From contig JAAZXM010000006.1 of assembly GCA_014240165.1 (NCBI GenBank), positions 54,708-118,707 of the forward strand: 64,000 bases of DNA. The letters run 5' to 3'. Shown in pieces: positions 8,622-29,883 of this stretch. Source of the DNA: Myxococcales bacterium. GTDB taxonomy: Bacteria; Myxococcota_A; UBA9160; UBA4427. Under the pieces are notes generated by a model. It saw nothing but the letters and a program-made list of their open reading frames with translations. It ran no database searches and was not told where the DNA came from. Position numbers and translations under genes: made by a program. Each line of letters opens with the position of its first letter. Position 1 is the stretch's first letter.

Positions 8622-10073
8622 TTGAGTTCGAAAGTATTGATCGTTGATGACGAAGATCTGATCTGCAGCATGCTGGATCGCGTCCTCCGCCTCGAAGGTT
8701 ACGAAGTCGAAACCTCGACCAAGCCGGAGGAGGGGTTGAACCTGCTCAAGCAGACCGCCTACGACGTCCTGCTGACCGACCTCCACATGAGCGGGATGAA
8801 CGGGCTGGAACTGCTCGGACGGGCTCGAAGAATCCAGCCCGCATGCGATGTCGTGATGATGACTGGCTATGCCTCGGTCGAAACCGCCAAAGAGGCGATC
8901 AAGCTCGGAGCCATCGACTACATCACAAAACCCCTGGACATCGAGGGTGAGCTCAAGCCCCTGCTCTCGAGCATCATGAACTCGGAAGCCGACCAGGACG
9001 AGCCCGGGGAAGACCTCGAGGATCCCCGCACCCAGGATGCCTGGGGCGATTTCGTTGGGCGGGGCGAGGCCACTCTGGGGCTTCTGAAAAAAGTGACGAA
9101 GGTCGCCCACTCGGATGTCCCGGTTCTGCTCCAGGGTCAATCCGGCACGGGCAAGGAAATGGTATCGGGGCTTCTCCACAAGCTCTCGCGACGCTCGGAG
9201 CGCCCCTTCATCAAGGTCAACTGCGCCGCCCTGCCCGAGACTCTTCTCGAGAGCGAACTTTTTGGACACACCAAGGGTTCCTTTACGGGCGCGACCAGCG
9301 ACCGGGACGGGCTCTTCAAGGCGGCCGATGGGGGAACCCTTCTCCTCGACGAAATCGGCGAGATCTCCCTGACCTTCCAGCCCAAACTCCTACGCGTGCT
9401 GCAAGACGGCGAATTCCACCGAGTGGGCGATGCCCAGCGGGCGGTCAAAGTCAACGTTCGCATCATCGCCGCGACCAACCGCGATCTCGTCAAGGCGGTT
9501 CGCACGGGCGATTTCCGGGAAGATCTCTACTACCGCTTGAACGTTGTCCCCCTCGAGATCCCGCCCCTCCGTGAACGCATCGATGACCTCGAGGATCTCC
9601 TCGAGCACTTCATCGCCCAGGCGGCGCGCAAACATGTCGGCTACCCGAAGGTTCAGTTTTCTGAAGAGATCGTCCGCGTCTTGAACCGCTACCCCTGGCC
9701 GGGAAATATCCGGGAGCTGGCGAATGCCGTGGAGAGCGCCACCGTGCTGGCCGAGGGAACCCAAGTGCGCCTCGCGGATCTTCCCCTGGCCATTCAGGAC
9801 TTCGCTCGAAGCCTGGGCGAGGAAGTAGGCTCAAACGACGACATGCCCCTGGGCGCAACGCCTGCAGAGACCCTGGAAGAGATCGAGATGCGCTGCATCA
9901 TCCAATCGATGGTCAAGACCGGCTTCAACCGAACACGTTCCGCCGACCTTCTCGGCGTCACCCGTCGCACACTCAGCTACCGGATCAATAAATACGATCT
10001 GGAGGACGAACTCGCTCGCCTCCAGGAGGCCAACGAGAAGGAATCCCAGGCGCCGGAAAATACGGCGAACTGA
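8622..10073 (+). CDS. Sigma-54-dependent response regulator (NtrC family enhancer-binding protein)
   Basis: Receiver domain (KVLIVDDE...LLTDLHMSGMNG). AAA+ domain with GQSGTGKE and GSFTGA (a GAFTGA variant). C-terminal HTH LLGVTRRTLSYRINKY. TTG start. Confidence 0.9.
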   Translation: MSSKVLIVDDEDLICSMLDRVLRLEGYEVETSTKPEEGLNLLKQTAYDVLLTDLHMSGMNGLELLGRARRIQPACDVVMMTGYASVETAKEAIKLGAIDYITKPLDIEGELKPLLSSIMNSEADQDEPGEDLEDPRTQDAWGDFVGRGEATLGLLKKVTKVAHSDVPVLLQGQSGTGKEMVSGLLHKLSRRSERPFIKVNCAALPETLLESELFGHTKGSFTGATSDRDGLFKAADGGTLLLDEIGEISLTFQPKLLRVLQDGEFHRVGDAQRAVKVNVRIIAATNRDLVKAVRTGDFREDLYYRLNVVPLEIPPLRERIDDLEDLLEHFIAQAARKHVGYPKVQFSEEIVRVLNRYPWPGNIRELANAVESATVLAEGTQVRLADLPLAIQDFARSLGEEVGSNDDMPLGATPAETLEEIEMRCIIQSMVKTGFNRTRSADLLGVTRRTLSYRINKYDLEDELARLQEANEKESQAPENTAN

Positions 10074-10079
10074 GCGCGC

Positions 10080-10862
10080 CTAGAGCGCTCCGTAGACCCG
10101 ATGGGTCTGAGGGATGAGGCGAACCTCTGCGACTTGATCTTCGCAGCGCCGCAGGTGCTCGAGCAGAGCCTTCGCAGAAGGCCGTTCGCGAACGCGACCG
10201 TGGGGGGTCACGGGCTGGAGGATCAGGGGGATGTCGGGAGCGATGCTTGCGATCCCGCGGCAGACCTCGGCCAATTCCTCAGCTGTCGAGTTTTGAGTGA
10301 TCACCACCTTGACGCTGGCGGGGAGAGCACTCTCCCGAATTCTCTCCAGGAAGGCCCGGTGCCCAGTCTGAAAGTCGGGGCCGACAGCGCTGCTTTCCGC
10401 CCAGCGAACATCGCTCTCGAGCTTCCAATCCATGGAGACGTAGTCGATCTCGTCGATGACTTCGTTCAACGCCTCGACGGCGAGCCCGTGGGTTTCGATG
10501 GCCACCTTGAGCCCGAGTTCATGGCCGATCCTCGCGGCGGCGACCACCCCCGGAGGTTGAAGCAACGGCTCACCTCCGGTCAGACTCAGGAGACTTCCCG
10601 GCCGGGGGGCCAGGGCTTCGATCGCGCGACGAAGCCGCCCAACCGAGGTCGGGTTGGGCTCTGATTCGAACTCTCCACTACCCGGATCGACTTCGAATCG
10701 ACACTGGCGAGCGGCCTTCCAGGTCTCGGGTGAGTCACACCACCCGCAACGCAGGTCGCAGGCCCCGAAACGCACGAACACCGTCGAGCGGCCCACCTGG
10801 GGCCCCTCGCCCTGGGCCGACCAGAAGACCTCGACCAGGTTGAGTTCAACCTCAGCCCGCAT
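10080..10862 (-). CDS. queE: 7-carboxy-7-deazaguanine synthase (radical SAM)
   Basis: FWSAQGEGPQVGRSTVFVRFGACDLRCGWCDS radical-SAM/QueE signature. Confidence 0.85.
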   Translation of the reverse strand: MRAEVELNLVEVFWSAQGEGPQVGRSTVFVRFGACDLRCGWCDSPETWKAARQCRFEVDPGSGEFESEPNPTSVGRLRRAIEALAPRPGSLLSLTGGEPLLQPPGVVAAARIGHELGLKVAIETHGLAVEALNEVIDEIDYVSMDWKLESDVRWAESSAVGPDFQTGHRAFLERIRESALPASVKVVITQNSTAEELAEVCRGIASIAPDIPLILQPVTPHGRVRERPSAKALLEHLRRCEDQVAEVRLIPQTHRVYGAL

Positions 10863-10867
10863 CGCGA

Positions 10868-13696
10868 CTACCGTTCGAGAATCGATCGACCCATGGCGAT
10901 CTCCCCAGTCACCTCGTCCAGACGGTCGGGATGGCGGTCCAATCCCGACACCCGAAAACGGGCAACATGGTCGTCATCGGGGAGCGCTTCCACCCAGTCG
11001 AGTTTTTCCGCCAGGTGTTCGGCCAGCGCCGCAAAGTCCAGCGTGCGGCGACCACCCGACTCCTCTCCCGAGAAGACGAAAAGGTCCGAGCCCTCCTGAT
11101 AACCAAGAGAGAGTTGCGCGCCGTAGCGCTCCCGCGCCACCCGAGCGGCGAGTTGGACATCGAAGCCCTCGGAGGCCTTCACCACGACCATGGAATAACC
11201 CGCAAAGTGAATGACCTTGAAATCCCGGGCCGCAATAAAAGCCACTTCGCCGGGAATCTCGGGGGGATCAACGAGAGCAGCCTCCTTGGCGAGATCACTC
11301 GGGCGTCCCGCCAGGAGCGGCTCGATATCCGAGCGGACATCACCCGATTTCTTCGCGATCTCTCCAAGCCTCCACCACCACACGCGACCCCAGCGCTCGT
11401 AGTCGTGCTCGGTGAAACGTCCGCAGGCCAGGTCTACCAACTTGTCGGAAAACCGACTTCGCCGGGTGCTGGTGGCCAGAACCAGGGGCAGGGTCGACCC
11501 CGCCCCGGGAGCATGATGCACCGCCTCTTCTCCGATGGCCTGGCGCAGGGCAAAGACATCTTCGGGCGGCCATTCGTGATGGTCATACCAGGTGAGCCTG
11601 TCCCGGTAGAGCGCCGCGGCCTGCAAAACCTCGGCTGCGGGCGAAGGAATGAAACCGACCATGTGAATCGGCACATCTTCCTCGATATCGGGCATCACCT
11701 CGCGAAAGAAGTTCATCAACTCGGCCTGCTTGTAGACCCAAACCCCTTCGAGCAAACGCACATCCCGCGCCAACAGAATCGCCGTGGTCACCGCATCGCG
11801 GTCTGCCGCTGCGACGATCACCGCTCGTCGTCTCGGCGGCCGAGGCGGCTCCACCGCTACGGGCAATTCGGCCACTTCGGATTTGCGGGCGGCACGACGG
11901 GCATCCCGGTCGCGCTGGCGATCCCGGTCCTCACCATCTCCGCTCTCTTCGAGATCCTCGGCCTGGTATCCGGCTTCCTTGTTTGCCTGAAGAGTCGGCA
12001 AATCCTCGGGAATCTCCGAAAGAACCTCGGTCAGATCCTCGCCGAACTCTTCCGACTCCGCCGATTCGTCTTGGGCGTTATCGAGATTGGCTGACTTCGC
12101 CCGGGACGGATCGGGGCGACTGCTTTCAGCCCCATCCTTATCCGGCGCATCCCTCCCCTCGCGTCGCCCTTCGCTCCTTCGACGACCACGCTGACGCGAG
12201 CGCCCTCGGCGACGTCCCCCACTCGATTCATCCTTGCCTTCCGTCTCGTCGAGGTCGAAAAGCGAAACCTCATCGAAGGCCGGACGTTCCTCGGTCGCGG
12301 ACGGAGCGGAACGCTTCTCATCCCCGGTCTCGGCGGCGTCTCGTCCTCGGCCGCGGCGACGGCTTCTCCGCCTCCCGGAATCGCTCCCGCCCGATGCTTC
12401 CTCAGCCCGCTCTTCCGGCTTTCCCGCCTCGCTCTCTGCGGCGCGCCCTCGCCCTTCGCCACGAGGCGGTCGGCCACCCGAGCGCCGGCGCCGGGAGGAC
12501 GCGTCCCGCCGGGACTTGGCCGCCTCTTCCGCGCCGATCGAGTTCAGAGTGACCGACTGGTCCCGCCCGGTGTGGATCTCATAGAGTTCGTGCGCCGCCG
12601 CCAGGGCCGAGACCGCCCGCAAGGCGGCCGGGGAGAACTCCTTCGCAGCCAGGATCAAATGCGGCGTTTCCAACCGGACCGGCGCCAATGCATTCGCAAA
12701 GAGAGCGGGCATCGCCAATCGGAGTTTCTGGACCCCGTCGAGAAATTTCCCCAACGCGGCCAGGTCGAATGTCTTGCGACCCACCACCGCCACCGGGTGG
12801 CCATCGCTCCGCAGGGCCGCCAGATCGACGGTCTCCCGATCCGCACCCCCCAAGGGCCATGCCCAGGAGTTACGCAATTCGGCCTCCCCCACCATGGCCT
12901 CTGCAACTTTTGTCCGCAGGGCTTCCTCGCTGCCGCGTACTTTCTTGTCATTCAGGCGGCGGCGAATCTGCCCTTCGAGGTCATCCAGGCCAGCCGCAAG
13001 GGCCCCTGGCTCAAGCGGAGTCCTCCGCCGCTGTCCCTCCAGCACGTTGAGAGCCGAGCCACCATCCTCCGCTCGCAACTCCGCGACCCGCTGGGCGAGG
13101 ACCACCAATTCGATGCTCTGGCCCACAGCCCGAATCGACCCACCATGTTTTGCCGCCAGCCCATCGAGACCCCGGGTGGCGCGATCGAAGAGCGCTCTCT
13201 CCGCGGGATCCTTGAGCCCCATGGCCACGGACTCGATCCGCAAGCCCCCCGGCTCGAGATCCGCTTCGGCCTCGACATTCTCTCCGCCGGTCCGCAAACC
13301 CTCAGCGGACACGGTCCGAAGCTCGAAGGGCAACTCTGCGCGCACCAGACCCAGCCGCCGCCGAGCCACGAGAGACCAGACCGGGGCGACAGCGAAGACC
13401 GTCCCCTTGAAGGACTCCTCCGCCGATAGGCGCATGCCCACGGCAAGAGCAGCCAGCAGCGCATCCTCGGCGCGGATCGGCGAAAAAGCGACAATCGCCG
13501 GATCCCCAGAGCTTGTTTCTCCCCGCCCCAAAGCAGCCAATCGATCGGAAACGCCTTCTTCCTCGATGACCTCCAACTTCGAAACCGGCAGTACGCCCGC
13601 CTCTTCAACTCGGCCCAGCCAGCGTGCGGCGTCGATGGATTCGGCGCCTCGCCTTCCGCTTTCGCCGCGTCGCTTGCGCGAAAAACGTCTCATCAT
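10868..13696 (-). CDS. Large orphan protein: unknown N-terminal region, Arg/Glu-rich disordered centre, degenerate DHH-like C-terminal domain
   Basis: Long ORF 10868..13747. The first ATG pair at 13696/13693 is preceded by AAGGGA. The centre is low complexity (RRRRSGGRPPRGEGRGR...RRRGRSRQRGRRRSEGR...). The C-terminus has VIVAAADRDAVTTA and WYDHHEW (DHH-like). Confidence 0.7.
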   Translation of the reverse strand: MMRRFSRKRRGESGRRGAESIDAARWLGRVEEAGVLPVSKLEVIEEEGVSDRLAALGRGETSSGDPAIVAFSPIRAEDALLAALAVGMRLSAEESFKGTVFAVAPVWSLVARRRLGLVRAELPFELRTVSAEGLRTGGENVEAEADLEPGGLRIESVAMGLKDPAERALFDRATRGLDGLAAKHGGSIRAVGQSIELVVLAQRVAELRAEDGGSALNVLEGQRRRTPLEPGALAAGLDDLEGQIRRRLNDKKVRGSEEALRTKVAEAMVGEAELRNSWAWPLGGADRETVDLAALRSDGHPVAVVGRKTFDLAALGKFLDGVQKLRLAMPALFANALAPVRLETPHLILAAKEFSPAALRAVSALAAAHELYEIHTGRDQSVTLNSIGAEEAAKSRRDASSRRRRSGGRPPRGEGRGRAAESEAGKPEERAEEASGGSDSGRRRSRRRGRGRDAAETGDEKRSAPSATEERPAFDEVSLFDLDETEGKDESSGGRRRGRSRQRGRRRSEGRREGRDAPDKDGAESSRPDPSRAKSANLDNAQDESAESEEFGEDLTEVLSEIPEDLPTLQANKEAGYQAEDLEESGDGEDRDRQRDRDARRAARKSEVAELPVAVEPPRPPRRRAVIVAAADRDAVTTAILLARDVRLLEGVWVYKQAELMNFFREVMPDIEEDVPIHMVGFIPSPAAEVLQAAALYRDRLTWYDHHEWPPEDVFALRQAIGEEAVHHAPGAGSTLPLVLATSTRRSRFSDKLVDLACGRFTEHDYERWGRVWWWRLGEIAKKSGDVRSDIEPLLAGRPSDLAKEAALVDPPEIPGEVAFIAARDFKVIHFAGYSMVVVKASEGFDVQLAARVARERYGAQLSLGYQEGSDLFVFSGEESGGRRTLDFAALAEHLAEKLDWVEALPDDDHVARFRVSGLDRHPDRLDEVTGEIAMGRSILER

Positions 13697-13823
13697 CTCT
13701 TGATCCCTTCGCTTCGTCGGGCGGTTCTCGGCAAGTACTCTCGACACCCGGCATGCAACCCATGCAATACCAAGACGGAGAACAGGTTCTTCCCGGTTTC
13801 ACCCCAACGTATGAGTGCTTTCA

Positions 13824-15029
13824 TCAATCATCGGCCTCGCCGGGAGCCGATCCAGCGCTCCCATCCCCTCCTGCGAGACCCCCCTCCAAGTCCTGCTCCA
13901 CCGCATTGGCCACGGTGTTTACAAGCGCATCCAGTACCGGCCCGCCCTCGACCTCTTCCCCCCTCAAACCATCAGCCGTAGACAGACACGCGCTGGCCAG
14001 ATCCTCGCGACCATCGCGCCAATAAAGATAGGCGGTCTCCTCGAAGCGCTCCGCATTCGCGGCCGCAGCTTCCGAGGTCTGAAAAAGTGAACGCACCTCG
14101 TCTTGGGCGCGGGCTTTCCGAGCGCTCGGATCGGCTTCGGGACCGCCGAATTCATCGCGAAGCAGGGCGACGGCCTTCTCCAAGGCCGAGGGTCCGGGCG
14201 GCCAGGGGCCGAGTCGGCCCTCCACCACCTCTGCGGCCAGGGCATCCAATGCCGCGGCTTCGGACTGCGCACCCAGTTGACTCCGCACCTCGTCGCCGGG
14301 TGTGCGCCCTTCATCCCCGGGCAACCCCAACTTGCCGCGCCACTCCGAGAAGGTCTTGGGAAGTGGCCGATCCGCGGGATGGGCAGCCAGTCGACGCCCG
14401 ATCAGGGCGCGCACGCTGTCGGGATCCGCATCGACGGCGGGAAAGCGTGAACGCTGCTTCAGGTCGCGGATGAAGGCCCCCACCTGTCGTCGGCCCGCAC
14501 GATAGACTTGAAAGTCGACGATCCCCCGATCCCCATCGAGAAGCGCCTCGAAAACCCGAGCGCCCCCGCTCGGACTCGACTCCACCAGGTAGACCAGACG
14601 GCCTCCCCGAGGATCGTAGGGGGAGACATGGCCGGTCGAGATCTTTTCGTTCAGGTCCGGCAAGCGGGACACCTTGGGCTTGGTGTCCGCCGACACCACC
14701 GAGGTCACCCCGCGCGAGCGGGCCTGGTGGATCAACCGGCGCAGGGCCTTGCGCCCGGTCTTGGGTAGACCCTCCAACGGGGTCTCGAGAACCAGCACGG
14801 CCCCGGCGTCATCCTCGAGCCAGGCCGTCGCCAACTCCGCCGCAGAATCGGGGTCGTGACCGAAGAGCCATGCGAGCACCCGACCCCCATCGCTGGGATT
14901 CAGCAACTCGAGCAATTGAAAGGGGTCGCCGTTGGCCGGGCGAATCTGATCGGCCTGATCCGGCAGAGCTTCGGCGGCGCTCTCAAGGCTTTCAGCGAGA
15001 CTCATCCCAACTCTCTCCGAGCGATTCAT
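13824..15029 (-). CDS. Hypothetical protein (no domain recognised)
   Basis: 401-codon ORF with GC-rich third positions. ATG at 15005 has the better Shine-Dalgarno sequence (GGAGAGAG), so the true start may be 15005. Confidence 0.6.
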   Translation of the reverse strand: MNRSERVGMSLAESLESAAEALPDQADQIRPANGDPFQLLELLNPSDGGRVLAWLFGHDPDSAAELATAWLEDDAGAVLVLETPLEGLPKTGRKALRRLIHQARSRGVTSVVSADTKPKVSRLPDLNEKISTGHVSPYDPRGGRLVYLVESSPSGGARVFEALLDGDRGIVDFQVYRAGRRQVGAFIRDLKQRSRFPAVDADPDSVRALIGRRLAAHPADRPLPKTFSEWRGKLGLPGDEGRTPGDEVRSQLGAQSEAAALDALAAEVVEGRLGPWPPGPSALEKAVALLRDEFGGPEADPSARKARAQDEVRSLFQTSEAAAANAERFEETAYLYWRDGREDLASACLSTADGLRGEEVEGGPVLDALVNTVANAVEQDLEGGLAGGDGSAGSAPGEADD

Positions 15030-15232: not shown

Positions 15233-16420
15233 TCAGGGATCGATTCCCGCCGCCGAATCCAGGTTTTTCTGGTGCTCCGCGAGGGCAAAACGGTCGGTCA
15301 TGCCCGCCACGTAGTCCGCGATGGCCCGCTCCTCGCCCTCTTCGCTGAAGCGCTCCCGGACCTCGGGGGGCAGCCGAGACGGGTCATCCGTGAAGAGCCT
15401 GAACAGGTCCTCCACCACGACCTCCGCCCGCTGAGTCCGGTCCAGAACCGCGGGGTGATTGTAAAAGTGATCGAATAGGAACGCTTTGATCTCCCGCCGA
15501 GCCCCGTCGACTTCGTCCGACAAGCCCACGACACGCCTCGCGTTGCGGCGAACCGCCTCCGGTGAATCGAGACCGTCGGCTTCGATCCGTCGGGTGCTGG
15601 TGGCGATCAGATCCGTCACCCAATGATCGATCATCGCCCGAACGATCCACGCCCGCTGGACACTCTCGGACGCCGAGGGTTGATTTTCCTGCACCTCCCC
15701 GACGAGATCTCGCAAAAGAGGAAGACTTTCGAGCATGCCGAAATGCAGAATCCCGGCGCGCAATCCATCATCGAGATCGTGGTTCAGATACGCGATCTCG
15801 TCCGAAGCGTCCGCCACCTGGCCCTCGAGGCTCCGCTGGTCGAGAAGTTCCGGAAGCCGGACAGGGTGGGTCCAATGACAGCCGTGCTTGAGGATTCCCT
15901 CGCGGGTCTCGTCGCTCAGGTTCAGACCGCGATATTCGACCTGCCGCTGCTCGAGGAGATCCACCACCCGCAGGCATTGCCGGTTGTGATCGAATCCGCC
16001 CGAAGACGAAAGCATCTCGGCCAAGACGCGCTCCCCAGCATGGCCAAAGGGCGTATGTCCCAGGTCATGGGCCAGGCCAATGGCCTCCGCCAGATCCTCG
16101 TTGAGTCCCAGCACCCGGGCAACGGTGCGCGTAATCTGCGCCCCTTCGAGGGTATGGGTCAGACGGTTTCGATAGTGATCCCCCTCGTGATGGACAAATA
16201 CCTGGGTCTTGTATTGGAGGCGCCGAAAAGCCCGGGAGTGAACCACTCGGTCTCGATCACGCTGAAAAGCCGTGCGAAAAGGATGCTCCTCTTCCGCATG
16301 AAGGCGACCGCGGGAGGATGCGCTTCGGCTCGCTACCGGCGCCAGGGACCCACTCTCCCTCTCCTCCTGGACAACCCGGCTGCGATAGACCTCGGCTGGG
16401 CCGGGCCGAGCGGGAGTCAT
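15233..16420 (-). CDS. dgt: Deoxyguanosinetriphosphate triphosphohydrolase-like protein (HD domain, Dgt family)
   Basis: FQRDRDRVVHSRAFRRLQYKTQVF, HYRNRLTHTLEGAQI and HDLGHTPFGHAGE. Start taken at ATG 16420, not 16768. Confidence 0.85.
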   Translation of the reverse strand: MTPARPGPAEVYRSRVVQEERESGSLAPVASRSASSRGRLHAEEEHPFRTAFQRDRDRVVHSRAFRRLQYKTQVFVHHEGDHYRNRLTHTLEGAQITRTVARVLGLNEDLAEAIGLAHDLGHTPFGHAGERVLAEMLSSSGGFDHNRQCLRVVDLLEQRQVEYRGLNLSDETREGILKHGCHWTHPVRLPELLDQRSLEGQVADASDEIAYLNHDLDDGLRAGILHFGMLESLPLLRDLVGEVQENQPSASESVQRAWIVRAMIDHWVTDLIATSTRRIEADGLDSPEAVRRNARRVVGLSDEVDGARREIKAFLFDHFYNHPAVLDRTQRAEVVVEDLFRLFTDDPSRLPPEVRERFSEEGEERAIADYVAGMTDRFALAEHQKNLDSAAGIDP

Positions 16421-16626
16421 CTCGAGGAATCCTCGGCGGAATCGGCCTCGCGCAGGATATCCCGCAGCGCTTGACGAGACTCCGGCCGAATCTGCTCGAC
16501 GTCGCCAGCGCCTCCGTCCACTTGGAGAGCCGGAGCTTCGTCCTCCAGGAGAACCAGACTCGAAGTCGCCCAGAGTCCGAAAACCGCAGCCACTGCGAGG
16601 AGAACCCAGAAACGCCAGCCGATCAT
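16417..16626 (-). CDS. Small single-pass membrane protein (69 aa)
   Basis: MIGWRFWVLLAVAAVFGLWATSS forms a TM helix. A GGGGGAGGGG sequence lies upstream. Its stop overlaps the dgt ATG (ATGA at 16417-16420). Confidence 0.5.
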   Translation of the reverse strand: MIGWRFWVLLAVAAVFGLWATSSLVLLEDEAPALQVDGGAGDVEQIRPESRQALRDILREADSAEDSSR

Positions 16627-16703
16627 CGCCCCTCCCCCAAGCCTTCGGAACAGTATCCCAACCCCGCCTCCACGCCCTTCTCCGGGAACCCGGGCTGGAC
16701 CCC

Positions 16704-16736
16704 CGACTCGCCGAAGGGCGAACGGGCGGCGAGTCG
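16704..16736. promoter_or_regulatory. Perfect 10-bp inverted repeat in a divergent promoter region
   Basis: CGACTCGCCG-N13-CGGCGAGTCG, between the small membrane gene (start 16626) and the aminotransferase (start 16788). Confidence 0.35.
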
Positions 16737-16787
16737 CCAAGCATCCGACTAAACGATGTTCTCCGCAAGCCGCGCTAGCCTCGGGCC

Positions 16788-17981: not shown

Positions 17982-18056
17982 TGGCATCCCCAACGGGAAT
18001 CGAACCCGTGTCGCCGGCTTGAAAGGCCGGTGTCCTAACCGCTAGACGATGGGGAC
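17982..18056 (-). tRNA. tRNA-Glu (anticodon UUC), CCA encoded
   Basis: Manual cloverleaf: GTCCCCA/TGGGGAT acceptor (G1-U72 wobble), D arm GTCT-AGCGGTTA-GGAC, anticodon arm CCGGC-CTTTCAA-GCCGG, T arm ACGGG-TTCGATT-CCCGT, then G-CCA. 75 nt. Confidence 0.9.
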
Positions 18057-27417: not shown

Positions 27418-29883
27418 TCAACGCGCGCGGGTACAGGATCGTGGGCGAACGCCTTTCAGCCGCGGCGCGGAAGAGTCCGAAGTCGGGCCCAAACCCAGAT
27501 CGAAAACGGCGGCTCCGTCACGGCCAGTCCAGGCCAAGGGCACCCCGGTCGCCTCGAAACGAGCAAGGGCCTCGGGATGGGGCAGTCGTGACCCGCCGTG
27601 GCAGGGCGCGGAAAGCAGCAACCAACGCGGCGCAACCGCGGAGAGGAACGCCGGGGTCGACGATCCGCGGCTCCCGTGGTGGCCCACCTTCAAAAGATCC
27701 GCCGCGAGGTCGACGCCGGACGCCTGCAAGGCTGTTTCGACCTTGGCCCCGATATCCCCGGTCAGAAGAATCCGCCACCCGGCCAATTCGAAGCGGAAAA
27801 CCAGGGATCGCGCGTTGGCCGGAGCGAGCGGTCCCTCTCGGGGTGGCCAGAGAGGAGTGGCCCGCAGCGCCCCAATGCGCCGTGGCGGTGCCCCTGCCCC
27901 CATCTCGACGATTGCCACCCCAAGGCGCCCGGCACTCCGCCGAAGCCCAGCGAAATTCGGGTCGTTCGCGCTCCGCCAGGGCAGCCAGATCTCGGATACC
28001 GGCAACGCATCGAGAACGCTGATCGCGCCGCCGCGATGATCGATATCGCCATGGGTGATCACAAGGGCATCCAAATGATCGACACCGAGTGCAGCCAGGG
28101 CCGGGACCACGGTGCTTCGCCCCAGGTCCAGGCCACCGGGGATCGCTCGTGCGGCATCCACCAGCACGGCCGAGCGCGCGCCTTGCAGGAGCAGCGCATC
28201 ACCCTGCCCCACATCGAACATGACGAGCCGCGGCGGACTGGGTACCCGATCCGCCGGAGGTGCCGTGTGGAGCCACAGCACCGCCGAGAGCGCGATCACC
28301 AGCACCGCGGAAGTTCGGGCCATTCGGCAAGCTTGGACTGCGAACACCCCGGCCACCCCCAGCGCAATGCCATGGGGACGACCGCGCACCCCGCTTCCCG
28401 TAGCGAATAGCTCGGACAGCCCGTCGACCGCAGCCAGGGTCAGGGCCGCAATGCTGTGGCTGATCGCGAGACACCCCTCCGCCACCGGGCCCTCGAAACC
28501 ACTGGCTGCGGTGGCGAGGAGCGAGGCCGGAAGAAGAAAAGCGCTCGTCCAAGGGATCGCAAGCACGTTGACGAGCACCCCGGGTGCGCCCGCGGCGAGT
28601 CCGCGCCAGGCCAATAGGGGCGCCGTGGAAATCAGGGCCAACGCGGAGAGGTGGACGAGGAGCCGTACCCGAGTGATGACCCGGCCCAGACGATGCGCCT
28701 GGGGCTCGGACTCCGAAACCGGACGACGCGCAGCCATCAGCAGCGCTCCGGTGGCCGCAAAGGAGAGTTGCGGCCCCAATTCAAAGAGCGACTGAGGCGC
28801 CGCCAATCCCACCCCGAGCCAGGCGATGGAGAGCAGGTGGCCGAGGGGAAGGGAACGGCCCAGCCTCAGCGCGACCAGCCCTGCGGCCAGGAAGATCAGC
28901 GCACGCTGCACCGGCACTCCGAAACCCACAAGTTGTGCATATCCGAGCGCCGCCACCCCGGCCCCGACACCCGCCACCAGACGAAGGTCGCGGCCGTGAT
29001 CACCGCACGCGCTCAGCAGGAAACGCAACCCCGCGTAGATCAGGCCCGCGACCAGGGCCAGATGGAGACCGGAGATCGCAAGCAGGTGGGCGATCCCCAA
29101 GCGCGCAAAAGCGTCGCGTGTCGAAATCCCGAGCCCCGCGCGATCACCCACGCCCAGGGCGGCAAGCAGAGCGCCGGATTCAGGGGACGCGCCGGCACCC
29201 ACGCCGCTTCGCAGCCGGGCGGAAAGGCGTGCGCGGAGCGATTCGACCCGCGCCCCAAGCCCGGGGGCAATCTCGGGGCCCCCGGAAGCAGCGCGAACAC
29301 GAACCAATAAGCCGATATCGAGCAAACTCGCCCGGCCCCCGATGCCCCGGCGTTGCCAACGCCGCTCGGGATGCAGGCGACCCGGGTTCCGAAGACCCCC
29401 GAGCGGCGCGACGCGCACCCGAGCCCGAATCCGATCCCCGATCTGCAAGCTCGACAGGGCCCGGGCCTCATCCGAGCCCGCGCGATGCTGGACAACGAGG
29501 CGCGGAGGCAGCGCGCGTCCCTCGCCGGGCAGCGCGCCCGGTGAGGCGACCTCGACCGGGGCACAGAGTTCCACCGAACGCAGCAACCCGCTCGCGTCGG
29601 CGGCGCAGACCCAAGCCTCGAGGCTCAGGGTCTCGGGCGCCGTGGGCACCGAAAGCGCGGCCGCGTCGAGCCGGGCAGCGAGCCCCGCCAGCCCGGCCGC
29701 AAAAGCCACGCCCCATGCGAATCCGAAGCGAAGGGCTGGCAATCGCCGGCTGAGGAGCGCGCCCGCGAAACACGCGAGGGCCAGGCCCAAGGCCTTGGGG
29801 CCATCGATGAGCGGCCACGTGAACTCAGCGGCAATAACGCCCATCACGTGGCCAAGCGCCAGGCTCGGCAACCCAAAGAACAA
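27418..29883 (-). CDS. comEC: DNA internalisation-related competence protein ComEC/Rec2
   Basis: Polytopic competence domain plus a C-terminal metallo-beta-lactamase domain (MFDVGQGDALLL...ITHGDIDHRGG...VGHHGS). TTG start. Confidence 0.85.
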   Translation of the reverse strand: MFFGLPSLALGHVMGVIAAEFTWPLIDGPKALGLALACFAGALLSRRLPALRFGFAWGVAFAAGLAGLAARLDAAALSVPTAPETLSLEAWVCAADASGLLRSVELCAPVEVASPGALPGEGRALPPRLVVQHRAGSDEARALSSLQIGDRIRARVRVAPLGGLRNPGRLHPERRWQRRGIGGRASLLDIGLLVRVRAASGGPEIAPGLGARVESLRARLSARLRSGVGAGASPESGALLAALGVGDRAGLGISTRDAFARLGIAHLLAISGLHLALVAGLIYAGLRFLLSACGDHGRDLRLVAGVGAGVAALGYAQLVGFGVPVQRALIFLAAGLVALRLGRSLPLGHLLSIAWLGVGLAAPQSLFELGPQLSFAATGALLMAARRPVSESEPQAHRLGRVITRVRLLVHLSALALISTAPLLAWRGLAAGAPGVLVNVLAIPWTSAFLLPASLLATAASGFEGPVAEGCLAISHSIAALTLAAVDGLSELFATGSGVRGRPHGIALGVAGVFAVQACRMARTSAVLVIALSAVLWLHTAPPADRVPSPPRLVMFDVGQGDALLLQGARSAVLVDAARAIPGGLDLGRSTVVPALAALGVDHLDALVITHGDIDHRGGAISVLDALPVSEIWLPWRSANDPNFAGLRRSAGRLGVAIVEMGAGAPPRRIGALRATPLWPPREGPLAPANARSLVFRFELAGWRILLTGDIGAKVETALQASGVDLAADLLKVGHHGSRGSSTPAFLSAVAPRWLLLSAPCHGGSRLPHPEALARFEATGVPLAWTGRDGAAVFDLGLGPTSDSSAPRLKGVRPRSCTRAR

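Follow-up and report, generated by a model that had tools for sequence, protein, structure and literature searches.

A Myxococcota protein family joining NucS/SfsA-like and DHH/DHHA1-like modules through a disordered, charge-patterned linker

Cdc45 has a DHH fold without catalysis, acts as a scaffold for protein and nucleic acid, and carries an acidic disordered insertion. Here we describe a gene on the minus strand (positions 10868..13696) of a 64,000-nucleotide stretch of contig JAAZXM010000006.1 from a Myxococcales bacterium (hereafter the window, meaning this whole stretch), whose 942-residue product links a NucS/SfsA-like module (N module) to a DHH/DHHA1-like module (C module) through a long disordered region. 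Among the DHH enzymes, NrnA of B. subtilis has an active site made of H20, D24, D26, D80, H103, H104 and D156. Its D80N D156N mutant shows no detectable activity and retains dinucleotide binding, and the GGGH motif of DHHA1 is defined in the same work (PMC9757072). NucS consists of a beta-rich DNA-binding domain and a RecB-like nuclease domain (PMC8228993). The disordered region of RNase E binds RNA, recruits clients and drives condensates (PMC13405055).

The combination of two nuclease-type modules and a disordered linker is an undescribed family in the libraries and literature searched. The architecture is new, while the component folds and superfamilies are already known. Searches of Pfam, NCBIfam, PHROG, PADLOC and PDB sequences returned no match to the protein beyond low-complexity noise; single-sequence and three profile searches against PDB sequences again gave only such noise, and Pfam gave no match for ten distant relatives. 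The domain library scan found no RNase E/G or S1 domain, and the N module has a different fold. Literature searches found no description of a NucS-DHH fusion or of a degenerate bacterial DHHA1 protein matching the family. A preliminary description of the window, made from the letters and their translations, had stated that no described family with this architecture was known, and the library and literature searches agree.

Architecture and the two nuclease-type modules

The gene and the parts of its folded modules are as follows.

10868..13696, minus strand: whole gene, 942 codons plus stop, ATG at 13696
13646..13696, minus strand: basic N-terminal peptide MMRRFSRKRRGESGRRG, residues 1-17, predicted to be disordered from a predicted local distance difference test score (pLDDT) <50
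13307..13645, minus strand: N-terminal alpha/beta subdomain, residues 18-130, pLDDT ~90
12497..13237, minus strand: NucS/SfsA-like module, residues 154-400, from Foldseek against PDB
12776..12826, minus strand: degenerate nuclease motif DLAALRSDGHPVAVVGR, D291...V305-G306-R307, from residue counts
11840..12496, minus strand: charge-block linker, residues 401-619, from pLDDT <50, a composition of R 18-19%, K 2-3%, D+E ~25% and G 11-13% with net charge ~0, and a substitution-rate ratio of 0.22-0.29
11342..11839, minus strand: DHH-like domain, residues 620-785, from Foldseek matches (8a8k and others, probability 0.9-1.0) and a parallel beta/alpha arrangement in the model
11792..11809, minus strand: motif I position AADRDA (family consensus H-A-D-R-D-S), after strand 625-630
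11651..11659, minus strand: motif II position VGF, canonical Asp replaced, after strand 677-680
11558..11584, minus strand: motif III position DHHEWPPED, from residue counts
11369..11464, minus strand: family signature RRSRFSDKLVDL..GRF..HDYERWGR.WW.R, from invariant residues
10871..11230, minus strand: DHHA1-like domain, residues 823-942, from DHH/DHHA1 fold matches and a beta-beta-alpha repeat pattern
11036..11053, minus strand: GRRTLD at the putative DHHA1 GGGH loop, placed by secondary-structure order

A full-length AlphaFold2 model was built with 40 homologues, and the residue counts below are likewise from 40 sequences. Residues 18-400 and 620-942 were modeled with confidence (pLDDT ~90, block values mostly 85-96), residues 402-618 have pLDDT <50, and a separate model of residues 18-402 gave a pLDDT of 90 and a predicted template-modelling score of 0.89. 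Column identity drops from about 0.5-0.8 in both modules to 0.2-0.55 in the core between them. This pattern of confidence and conservation bears out the three-part layout proposed in the preliminary description, and every peptide string quoted there is present in the translation.

The C-terminal ~320 residues had been read as DHH-like, and the structural search points the same way. When the full-length model was compared with PDB using Foldseek, the 33 best matches were all DHH/DHHA1 proteins (E 3e-6 to 2.3e-3, probability 0.85-1.0), led by PAP phosphatase 8a8k (3e-6) and followed by archaeal GAN/RecJ-Cdc45, bacterial RecJ, RecJ2, H. pylori 6mtz, family II pyrophosphatase and PggH. These are the only significant PDB matches for residues 620-942. 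Template-modelling scores are low, an effect of normalisation to 942 residues and of a hinge between the two lobes. In the model, the C module comprises five strand-helix units, then helices, then a beta-beta-alpha-beta-beta-alpha-beta-beta-alpha lobe. At the profile level, no DHH/DHHA1 match was found in Pfam or NCBIfam or with the C-module profile against PDB sequences, and hhalign of this profile with E. coli RecJ gave a probability of 0.8%. A bridge to the DHH family sought via standalone ~330-aa relatives led only to further unannotated Planctomycetota proteins, and a regular-expression search of 1.1 Mb of loci turned up no genuine DHH/GGGH protein.

Judged from the topology of the model, the motif-like residues that close strands 1, 3 and 4 probably occupy the sites of DHH motifs I, II and III. 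The preliminary description had noted such residues in DHH order with substitutions; they sit at the strand ends expected topologically, and the substitutions could be counted. At motif I, the DxD pair is present (D632 in 39/40 and D634 in 38/40), accompanied by S635 (37/40) and H630 (26/40). At motif II, G681 and F682 are both found in 40/40, and an Asp equivalent to NrnA D80 was seen only in the outlier protein P0202. Motif III keeps D705 (39/40) and W709, E712 and D713 (40/40 each), and its HH pair is variable across the family, with H706 in 27/40 (Arg in 13/40) and H707 in 26/40; the window copy reads DHH. One third of members have RQ, RH or RG for H-H and no other change. In the putative motif IV region (NrnA D156), placed by topology, no conserved Asp was found in the loop or helix after strand 726-728, where the consensus runs G-x-G-S-S-L-P and then T-R-R-S-R-F.

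The C module has instead its own conserved residues, including about 20 invariant Arg and 6 invariant Trp. R745, R746, S747, R748, F749, H764 and D765 are found in 40/40, and the family-wide signature is RRSRF[ST]DKLVDL...RF..HD[YF]ERWGR, of which RRSRF[ST]DKL is retained in a distant ~850-aa subfamily. The loop assigned to GGGH has G882 in 34/40 and [RK]883, R884 and D887 in 40/40, and the GGGH motif itself is absent. Because, relative to NrnA, the motif II Asp and GGGH are replaced and HH is variable, the canonical two-metal site is incomplete in the C module. In the clade without HH the rest of the domain is nearly unchanged, and the domain has a nonsynonymous to synonymous substitution ratio (dN/dS) of 0.07-0.10; the selected function is therefore independent of HH.

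The N module resembles a second nuclease superfamily. Residues 154-400 form a helix, a five-strand beta-meander, a helical pair and a PD-(D/E)xK-like alpha/beta core (275-400). Their best PDB match is apo EndoMS 5gkj_B (E 7.6e-4, probability 1.0, 20% identity over 120 columns), and further matches are an EndoMS-DNA complex (5gke_A, 3e-3), SfsA 4dav (4e-3) and P. abyssi NucS 2vld (5e-3). Card1 and AvaII stand lower in this list, and all are PD-(D/E)xK proteins. EndoMS/NucS was also matched by the full-length model, directly after the 33 DHH proteins. The match to a NucS-like fold is consistent, with modest significance. Pfam and NCBIfam gave no NucS match, the N-module profile found nothing among PDB sequences, and the viral structure library held no significant match for the module. 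For the preceding subdomain, residues 18-130, Foldseek returned non-significant matches only.

The preliminary description had proposed a nuclease motif with its Glu replaced by Gly. The NucS/EndoMS-like fold and the missing Glu stand, and the register has to be shifted: the Glu equivalent is position 305, not G306. This position is Ala in 34/40 and otherwise Val, Gly or Thr, never an acid, with Val in the window copy. Likewise, the conserved equivalent of the nuclease Lys is R307 (40/40) and not K308, which varies. D291 is found in 40/40, G299 is invariant, and so are E241 and D286 upstream of the motif. In the ~850-aa subfamily R307 is sometimes lost, and the Asp and a Glu in the preceding helix are kept; no member of the extended family has the catalytic Glu. 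With D...ExK reading D...A/V-x-R, the canonical nuclease triad is missing.

The gene lies within an uninterrupted open reading frame (ORF) at 10868..13747 on the minus strand, which starts at an upstream GTG. The ATG at 13696 is favored by the N-terminus MMRRFSRRRRGG shared among homologues and has a Shine-Dalgarno-like GAAGGGA ~8 nt on its 5' side; the 942-codon form is likely the actual gene. Selection was estimated by the Nei-Gojobori method against a 97%-identical homologue (dS 0.1) and an 89%-identical homologue (dS 0.5). By part, dN/dS is 0.06-0.085 (N module), 0.07-0.105 (C module) and 0.22-0.29 (linker), against 0.12-0.13 over the whole gene. The 942-residue protein is real and under purifying selection. 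The preliminary description had named two outcomes that would speak against it, namely terminal domains with neither a DHH-like nor a nuclease-like fold, or a lineage-restricted ORF under no purifying selection. Neither was observed: both terminal folds agree with the guess, and dN/dS lies well under 1; of the second outcome, the lineage restriction is present and the absence of purifying selection is not borne out. Residues F5 and R7 of the N-terminal peptide never vary. The peptide's MMRRFSRKRR could suggest a twin-arginine signal peptide, a reading rejected for want of a hydrophobic segment after it and because disorder is predicted there.

Linker, family range and gene cluster

The linker contains a fixed series of charged blocks and short conserved peptides, including the following.

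12443..12511, minus strand: Arg-rich block 1 RRDASSRRRRSGGRPPRGEGRGR, from sequence; position kept in the family consensus
12341..12376, minus strand: Arg-rich block 2 GRRRSRRRGRGR, from sequence and family consensus
12245..12280, minus strand: conserved short linear motif AFDEVSLFDLDE, family consensus R-F-E-E-V-S-L-[FM]-D-L-D-[DE]
12152..12214, minus strand: Arg-rich block 3 RRRGRSRQRGRRRSEGRREGR, from sequence and family consensus
11906..12151, minus strand: long acidic stretch with a second, semi-conserved motif DLTEVLSEIPEDLP, L559 conserved in >=90%

The Arg-rich and acidic core had been described as disordered, in accordance with the pLDDT values (<50). Across the 40 homologues the linker is 214-295 residues long and contains 18% Arg, 2% Lys, 26% Asp plus Glu and 13% Gly, with a net charge per residue of -0.06 and an Arg:Lys ratio of about 9:1. 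Its charges are more blocky than in composition-matched shuffles in 40/40 homologues (z = 2.8-10.7; z = 4.2 for the window copy). The order of blocks is kept: Arg, acidic, Arg, a conserved island, Arg, a long acidic stretch with a weaker island, a short basic helix, and a PRPPRRR lead-in to the DHH-like domain.

The conserved 11-residue island, with the peptide RFEEVSLFDLDD, occurs in 138/170 full-length members (81%) and is absent from the ~850-aa subfamily and from P0202. Aligned positions in 142 members show S in 142/142, L at +4 in 139/142 and E at -2 in 136/142, and the core reads E (136), V/L/I (130), S (142), L (128) and F/M (134). In the AlphaFold model the island is unstructured and undocked on the protein's own domains, which suggests a partner in trans.

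At least 261 relatives were found in the protein database. Nearly all are 880-1020 aa long, unnamed or labeled 'hypothetical', and without a Pfam domain. More than 250 full-length homologues reach down to about 40% identity. An exhaustive C-module profile search of 1.84 billion representatives gave only 178 clusters, defined at 50% identity, at E <= 1e-3. A scan with one genome per GTDB species was positive in 137 genomes, all metagenome-assembled, with titles naming Myxococcota, Deltaproteobacteria and Myxococcales (UBA9160 and UBA4427 included) plus a 'Spirochaetaceae' set. Twelve loci carry Spirochaetaceae or Spirochaetales titles. These titles are probably taxonomic mislabels, because one such isolate is named HK-STAS-MYXO-51. 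The full-length family is restricted to uncultured Myxococcota. Within the main family identity falls to about 55% in the C module and about 34% in the N module, and the family is narrow but deep.

Four groups were recovered by the deep search: the main family, the distant ~850-aa subfamily (790-985 aa, about 38% identity in the C module), the outlier P0202, and standalone proteins of ~330 aa. P0202 has its Arg/acid disordered region at the N-terminal end, a short linker between the N and C modules, and an Asp at the motif II position (LYLTDL). The standalone proteins, from Planctomycetota, are unannotated and match the whole C module (E about 1e-9); their genes lie between Maf plus a dual-specificity phosphatase and phosphofructokinase. 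From comparison of the four groups, the pairing of N and C modules is therefore what the family conserves; the disordered region is an accessory that can change place, and the C module can also occur by itself. On two Planctomycetota contigs (L085, 7001-7999; L088, 7001-7996) the standalone proteins are without DHH, HH or the motif II Asp and form a mini-family. One entry of the representative library, a 1407-aa 'protein' (P0197), reads through a homologue and its downstream radical-SAM gene in scrambled frames; it stems from an error of assembly or gene calling and is no fusion.

The surroundings of the gene in the window are listed below.

10080..10862, minus strand: QueE-like radical-SAM gene, starting 5 nt after the stop of the 942-codon gene; Radical_SAM and Fer4_12 domains
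13824..15029, minus strand: 401-aa protein, directly upstream of the 942-codon gene
15233..16768, minus strand: dGTP triphosphohydrolase (dGTPase), NF002326, 438 bits against a cut-off of 390; maximal ORF
17982-18056, minus strand: tRNA-Glu (anticodon TTC), the sole Rfam/ARAGORN match in the window

The conserved order of the cluster is dGTPase, ~400-aa protein, the two-module gene and the QueE-like radical-SAM gene. The last was found directly downstream and co-oriented in 82/82 loci by tblastn. The best NCBIfam model for its product is QueE (TIGR03365), sub-threshold. The resemblance to QueE spans the full length, but the score falls well short of all QueE cut-offs (66.9 bits against 206), and this product may not be a canonical 7-carboxy-7-deazaguanine synthase. 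In the ~850-aa subfamily the dGTPase, the two-module gene and the radical-SAM gene are contiguous, and the stop of the two-module gene overlaps the radical-SAM start. A homologue of the 401-aa protein lies directly upstream in most loci with enough flank and is absent or undetected in a few. It has no significant match in Pfam, NCBIfam, PHROG, PADLOC or PDB, and represents a second uncharacterised family and a possible partner of the 942-residue protein. Its invariant features include an RPANGDP-type stretch, GPWPP and several Arg/Lys. A dGTPase occurs further upstream in most loci. In the window its homology begins near residue 131 of the maximal ORF, and the ~130 extra N-terminal residues are probably untranslated. 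The operon link is robust. No RNA element stands out, nor does any terminator or sigma-70-like promoter in a promoter and terminator scan of the cluster, which found nothing above expectation.

Some relatives have a CutA1 or HIT-family gene within or beside the cluster: CutA1 lies between the dGTPase and the 401-aa gene in one locus, and a HIT-family gene lies upstream of the dGTPase in another. A sigma-54-dependent response regulator (NtrC/AtoC-like; 8622-10073, plus strand) is convergent with the cluster and neighbors it only in the closest relatives. An 821-aa ORF (27418-29883, minus strand) looks ComEC/Rec2-like by eye, with a polytopic membrane part and a metallo-beta-lactamase-type HxHxDH region, and lies in the stretch of the window with the highest GC (0.70) and the highest AT skew (0.38).

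Possible functions

Our preferred reading, to which we give a probability of about 45%, sees the protein as a multivalent scaffold that binds nucleic acid and is made from two nuclease-type folds without canonical active sites. Both modules would keep a substrate-binding architecture in which catalytic acid and His positions are replaced, and their conserved Arg/Trp surfaces could hold phosphate backbones or nucleotide ends. Surfaces rich in conserved Arg and Trp, together with the replaced catalytic positions, suit holding rather than hydrolysing. The linker would tether the two modules, its Arg blocks may add non-specific affinity for RNA or DNA, and its blocky charge would favor self-association. 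The RFEEVSLFDLDD peptide may recruit a partner protein in trans. As members of one operon, the protein, the dGTPase, the ~400-aa protein and the QueE-like radical-SAM enzyme would be made together. The folds, the substitutions, the Arg/Trp content, the linker grammar, the undocked island and the modularity seen in P0202 and the Planctomycetota standalone proteins all argue for a scaffold; from them we infer loss of catalysis, nucleic-acid binding, scaffold or condensate behavior and partner recruitment. The linker could bind either RNA or DNA.

A working enzyme is a somewhat unlikely alternative. One or both modules could contain a rearranged, non-canonical site that processes RNA or DNA ends, with the linker concentrating the substrate. 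Invariant acids and His residues do cluster near the canonical site of the C module (D632, D634, D705, E712, D713, H764-D765 and D909-H910), the nuclease-like core keeps E241, D286 and D291 without exception, the gene is under very strong purifying selection, and P0202 has the Asp at motif II. However, Gly stands at the motif II Asp position in 40/40, and NrnA becomes inactive when this Asp is lost together with D156 (PMC9757072). Moreover, the HH pair is exchanged in one third of otherwise unchanged members, the nuclease Glu is absent across the extended family, R307 is lost in some subfamily members, and no tie at the sequence level leads to any active family. It is quite unlikely that the protein is a DNA replication or repair factor tethered to the sliding clamp, with a NucS-like module binding lesions or mismatches and a RecJ-like module binding single-stranded DNA, both brought to the replisome via the EVSLF core of the island. 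The consensus for binding the beta clamp is QL[SD]LF, to which EVSLF would correspond at 3/5 positions with conservative changes at the other two. The resemblance is tentative, and the Gln of the consensus is Glu here. Both folds occur in DNA-repair enzymes and a dGTPase belongs to the cluster, but the motif is absent from the ~850-aa subfamily and P0202, its acidic flanks would equally fit other partner grooves, and the Arg/Gly-rich blocks are more typical of RNA binders. NucS activity itself needs an interaction with the clamp (PMC8228993; PMC6159515).

The C module might also have become a receptor for a small phosphorylated ligand, such as phosphoadenosine phosphate (pAp), a linear or cyclic dinucleotide, or a deazaguanine or guanine nucleotide, and couple this signal to nucleic-acid binding, in the way degenerate EAL/GGDEF proteins do for cyclic di-GMP. 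We regard this as improbable, as it is purely an argument from analogy and nothing points to a particular ligand. In its favor, the catalytic residues have given way to invariant Arg (RRSRF, G-[RK]-R) where DHH/DHHA1 enzymes hold substrate phosphates, and a catalytically dead NrnA mutant keeps dinucleotide binding (PMC9757072). The standalone 330-aa C module of Planctomycetota lies beside the nucleotide pyrophosphatase Maf, and the dGTPase and the QueE-like enzyme encoded in the Myxococcota cluster both belong to guanine-nucleotide metabolism, but this neighborhood tie is loose. That the ORF is non-functional, as a chance frame in GC-rich DNA or a decaying lineage-specific gene, is refuted by the data: long shadow ORFs are indeed numerous in high-GC DNA, the opposite strand here included, and the family is lineage-restricted, but dN/dS is 0.06-0.29, more than 250 full-length homologues in 137 species-level genomes were found, the AlphaFold domains are confident and the synteny is conserved.

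A bolder form of the scaffold reading is unlikely as it stands. In this form the protein would be a condensate-forming hub made of two dead nuclease folds, with a logic like that of the RNase E scaffold and Cdc45, functionally coupled to the QueE-like enzyme and the dGTPase, and would organise RNA turnover or replication-coupled repair across an uncultured Myxococcota class. Such a hub could, for example, pass tRNA or DNA on to a pathway of deazaguanine-type modification or surveillance.

As it stands, the protein contains a well-defined domain of unknown function that merits a family definition. If the scaffold reading is true, two enzyme folds have been re-used as binding modules, lineage-wide and under strong selection, and an RNase E-like, charge-patterned disordered scaffold exists outside the RNase E family, in a protein whose gene shares a fixed operon with those of a radical-SAM enzyme and a dGTPase. 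The protein would then be a bacterial addition to the short list of DHH-fold scaffolds, of which Cdc45 is the paradigm, and to the proteins with condensate-type linkers. It would also open a way into the nucleic-acid metabolism of a large marine and sediment Myxococcota group without cultured members. Specialists should find each of three points somewhat surprising: catalytic residues are lost from both modules, the linker is RNase E-like, and the coupling to a radical-SAM gene does not vary.

Comparison with known systems

With NrnA, PAP phosphatase and PggH (about 310-340 aa) and with RecJ, the protein shares the two-lobed DHH plus DHHA1 fold, and its C module (about 325 aa) has the same length as the standalone NrnA-type enzymes. 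The motif I Asp pair and the motif III Asp of DHH enzymes are kept. It differs from them by the Gly at motif II, the variable HH, the lack of a conserved Asp at the putative motif IV site and the G-[RK]-R in place of GGGH, and it has an Arg/Trp signature of its own (RRSRF...HDYERWGR), a fused nuclease-like module and a long disordered region. Cdc45 and GAN/RecJ-Cdc45 are among its PDB matches (5ght, 7bih, 7bhi, 7e15, and Cdc45 6cc2 and 6skl). Unlike Cdc45/GAN, to which it shows no sequence relationship, the protein is bacterial and Myxococcota-restricted, and it has no helicase or GINS context, its neighbors being the dGTPase and the radical-SAM gene.

With EndoMS/NucS and SfsA, the N module shares its domain order, in which a nuclease-like alpha/beta core comes after a beta-rich subdomain. 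The EndoMS/NucS pattern hDhhh-x-D-x-G-x-hhhh-x-h-[basic] is kept, with its first Asp invariant. In contrast to EndoMS/NucS, the catalytic Glu is missing, Lys is replaced by Arg, and no QxxxY-type motif is seen by eye in the next helix. The module also has an extra 110-residue N-terminal subdomain and a helical insert, and the candidate partner motif is internal rather than C-terminal. The linker shares with the C-terminal scaffold of RNase E a long disordered region, alternating Arg-rich and acidic blocks and short conserved islands, but it lies internally between folded modules, and the two show no sequence similarity beyond composition.

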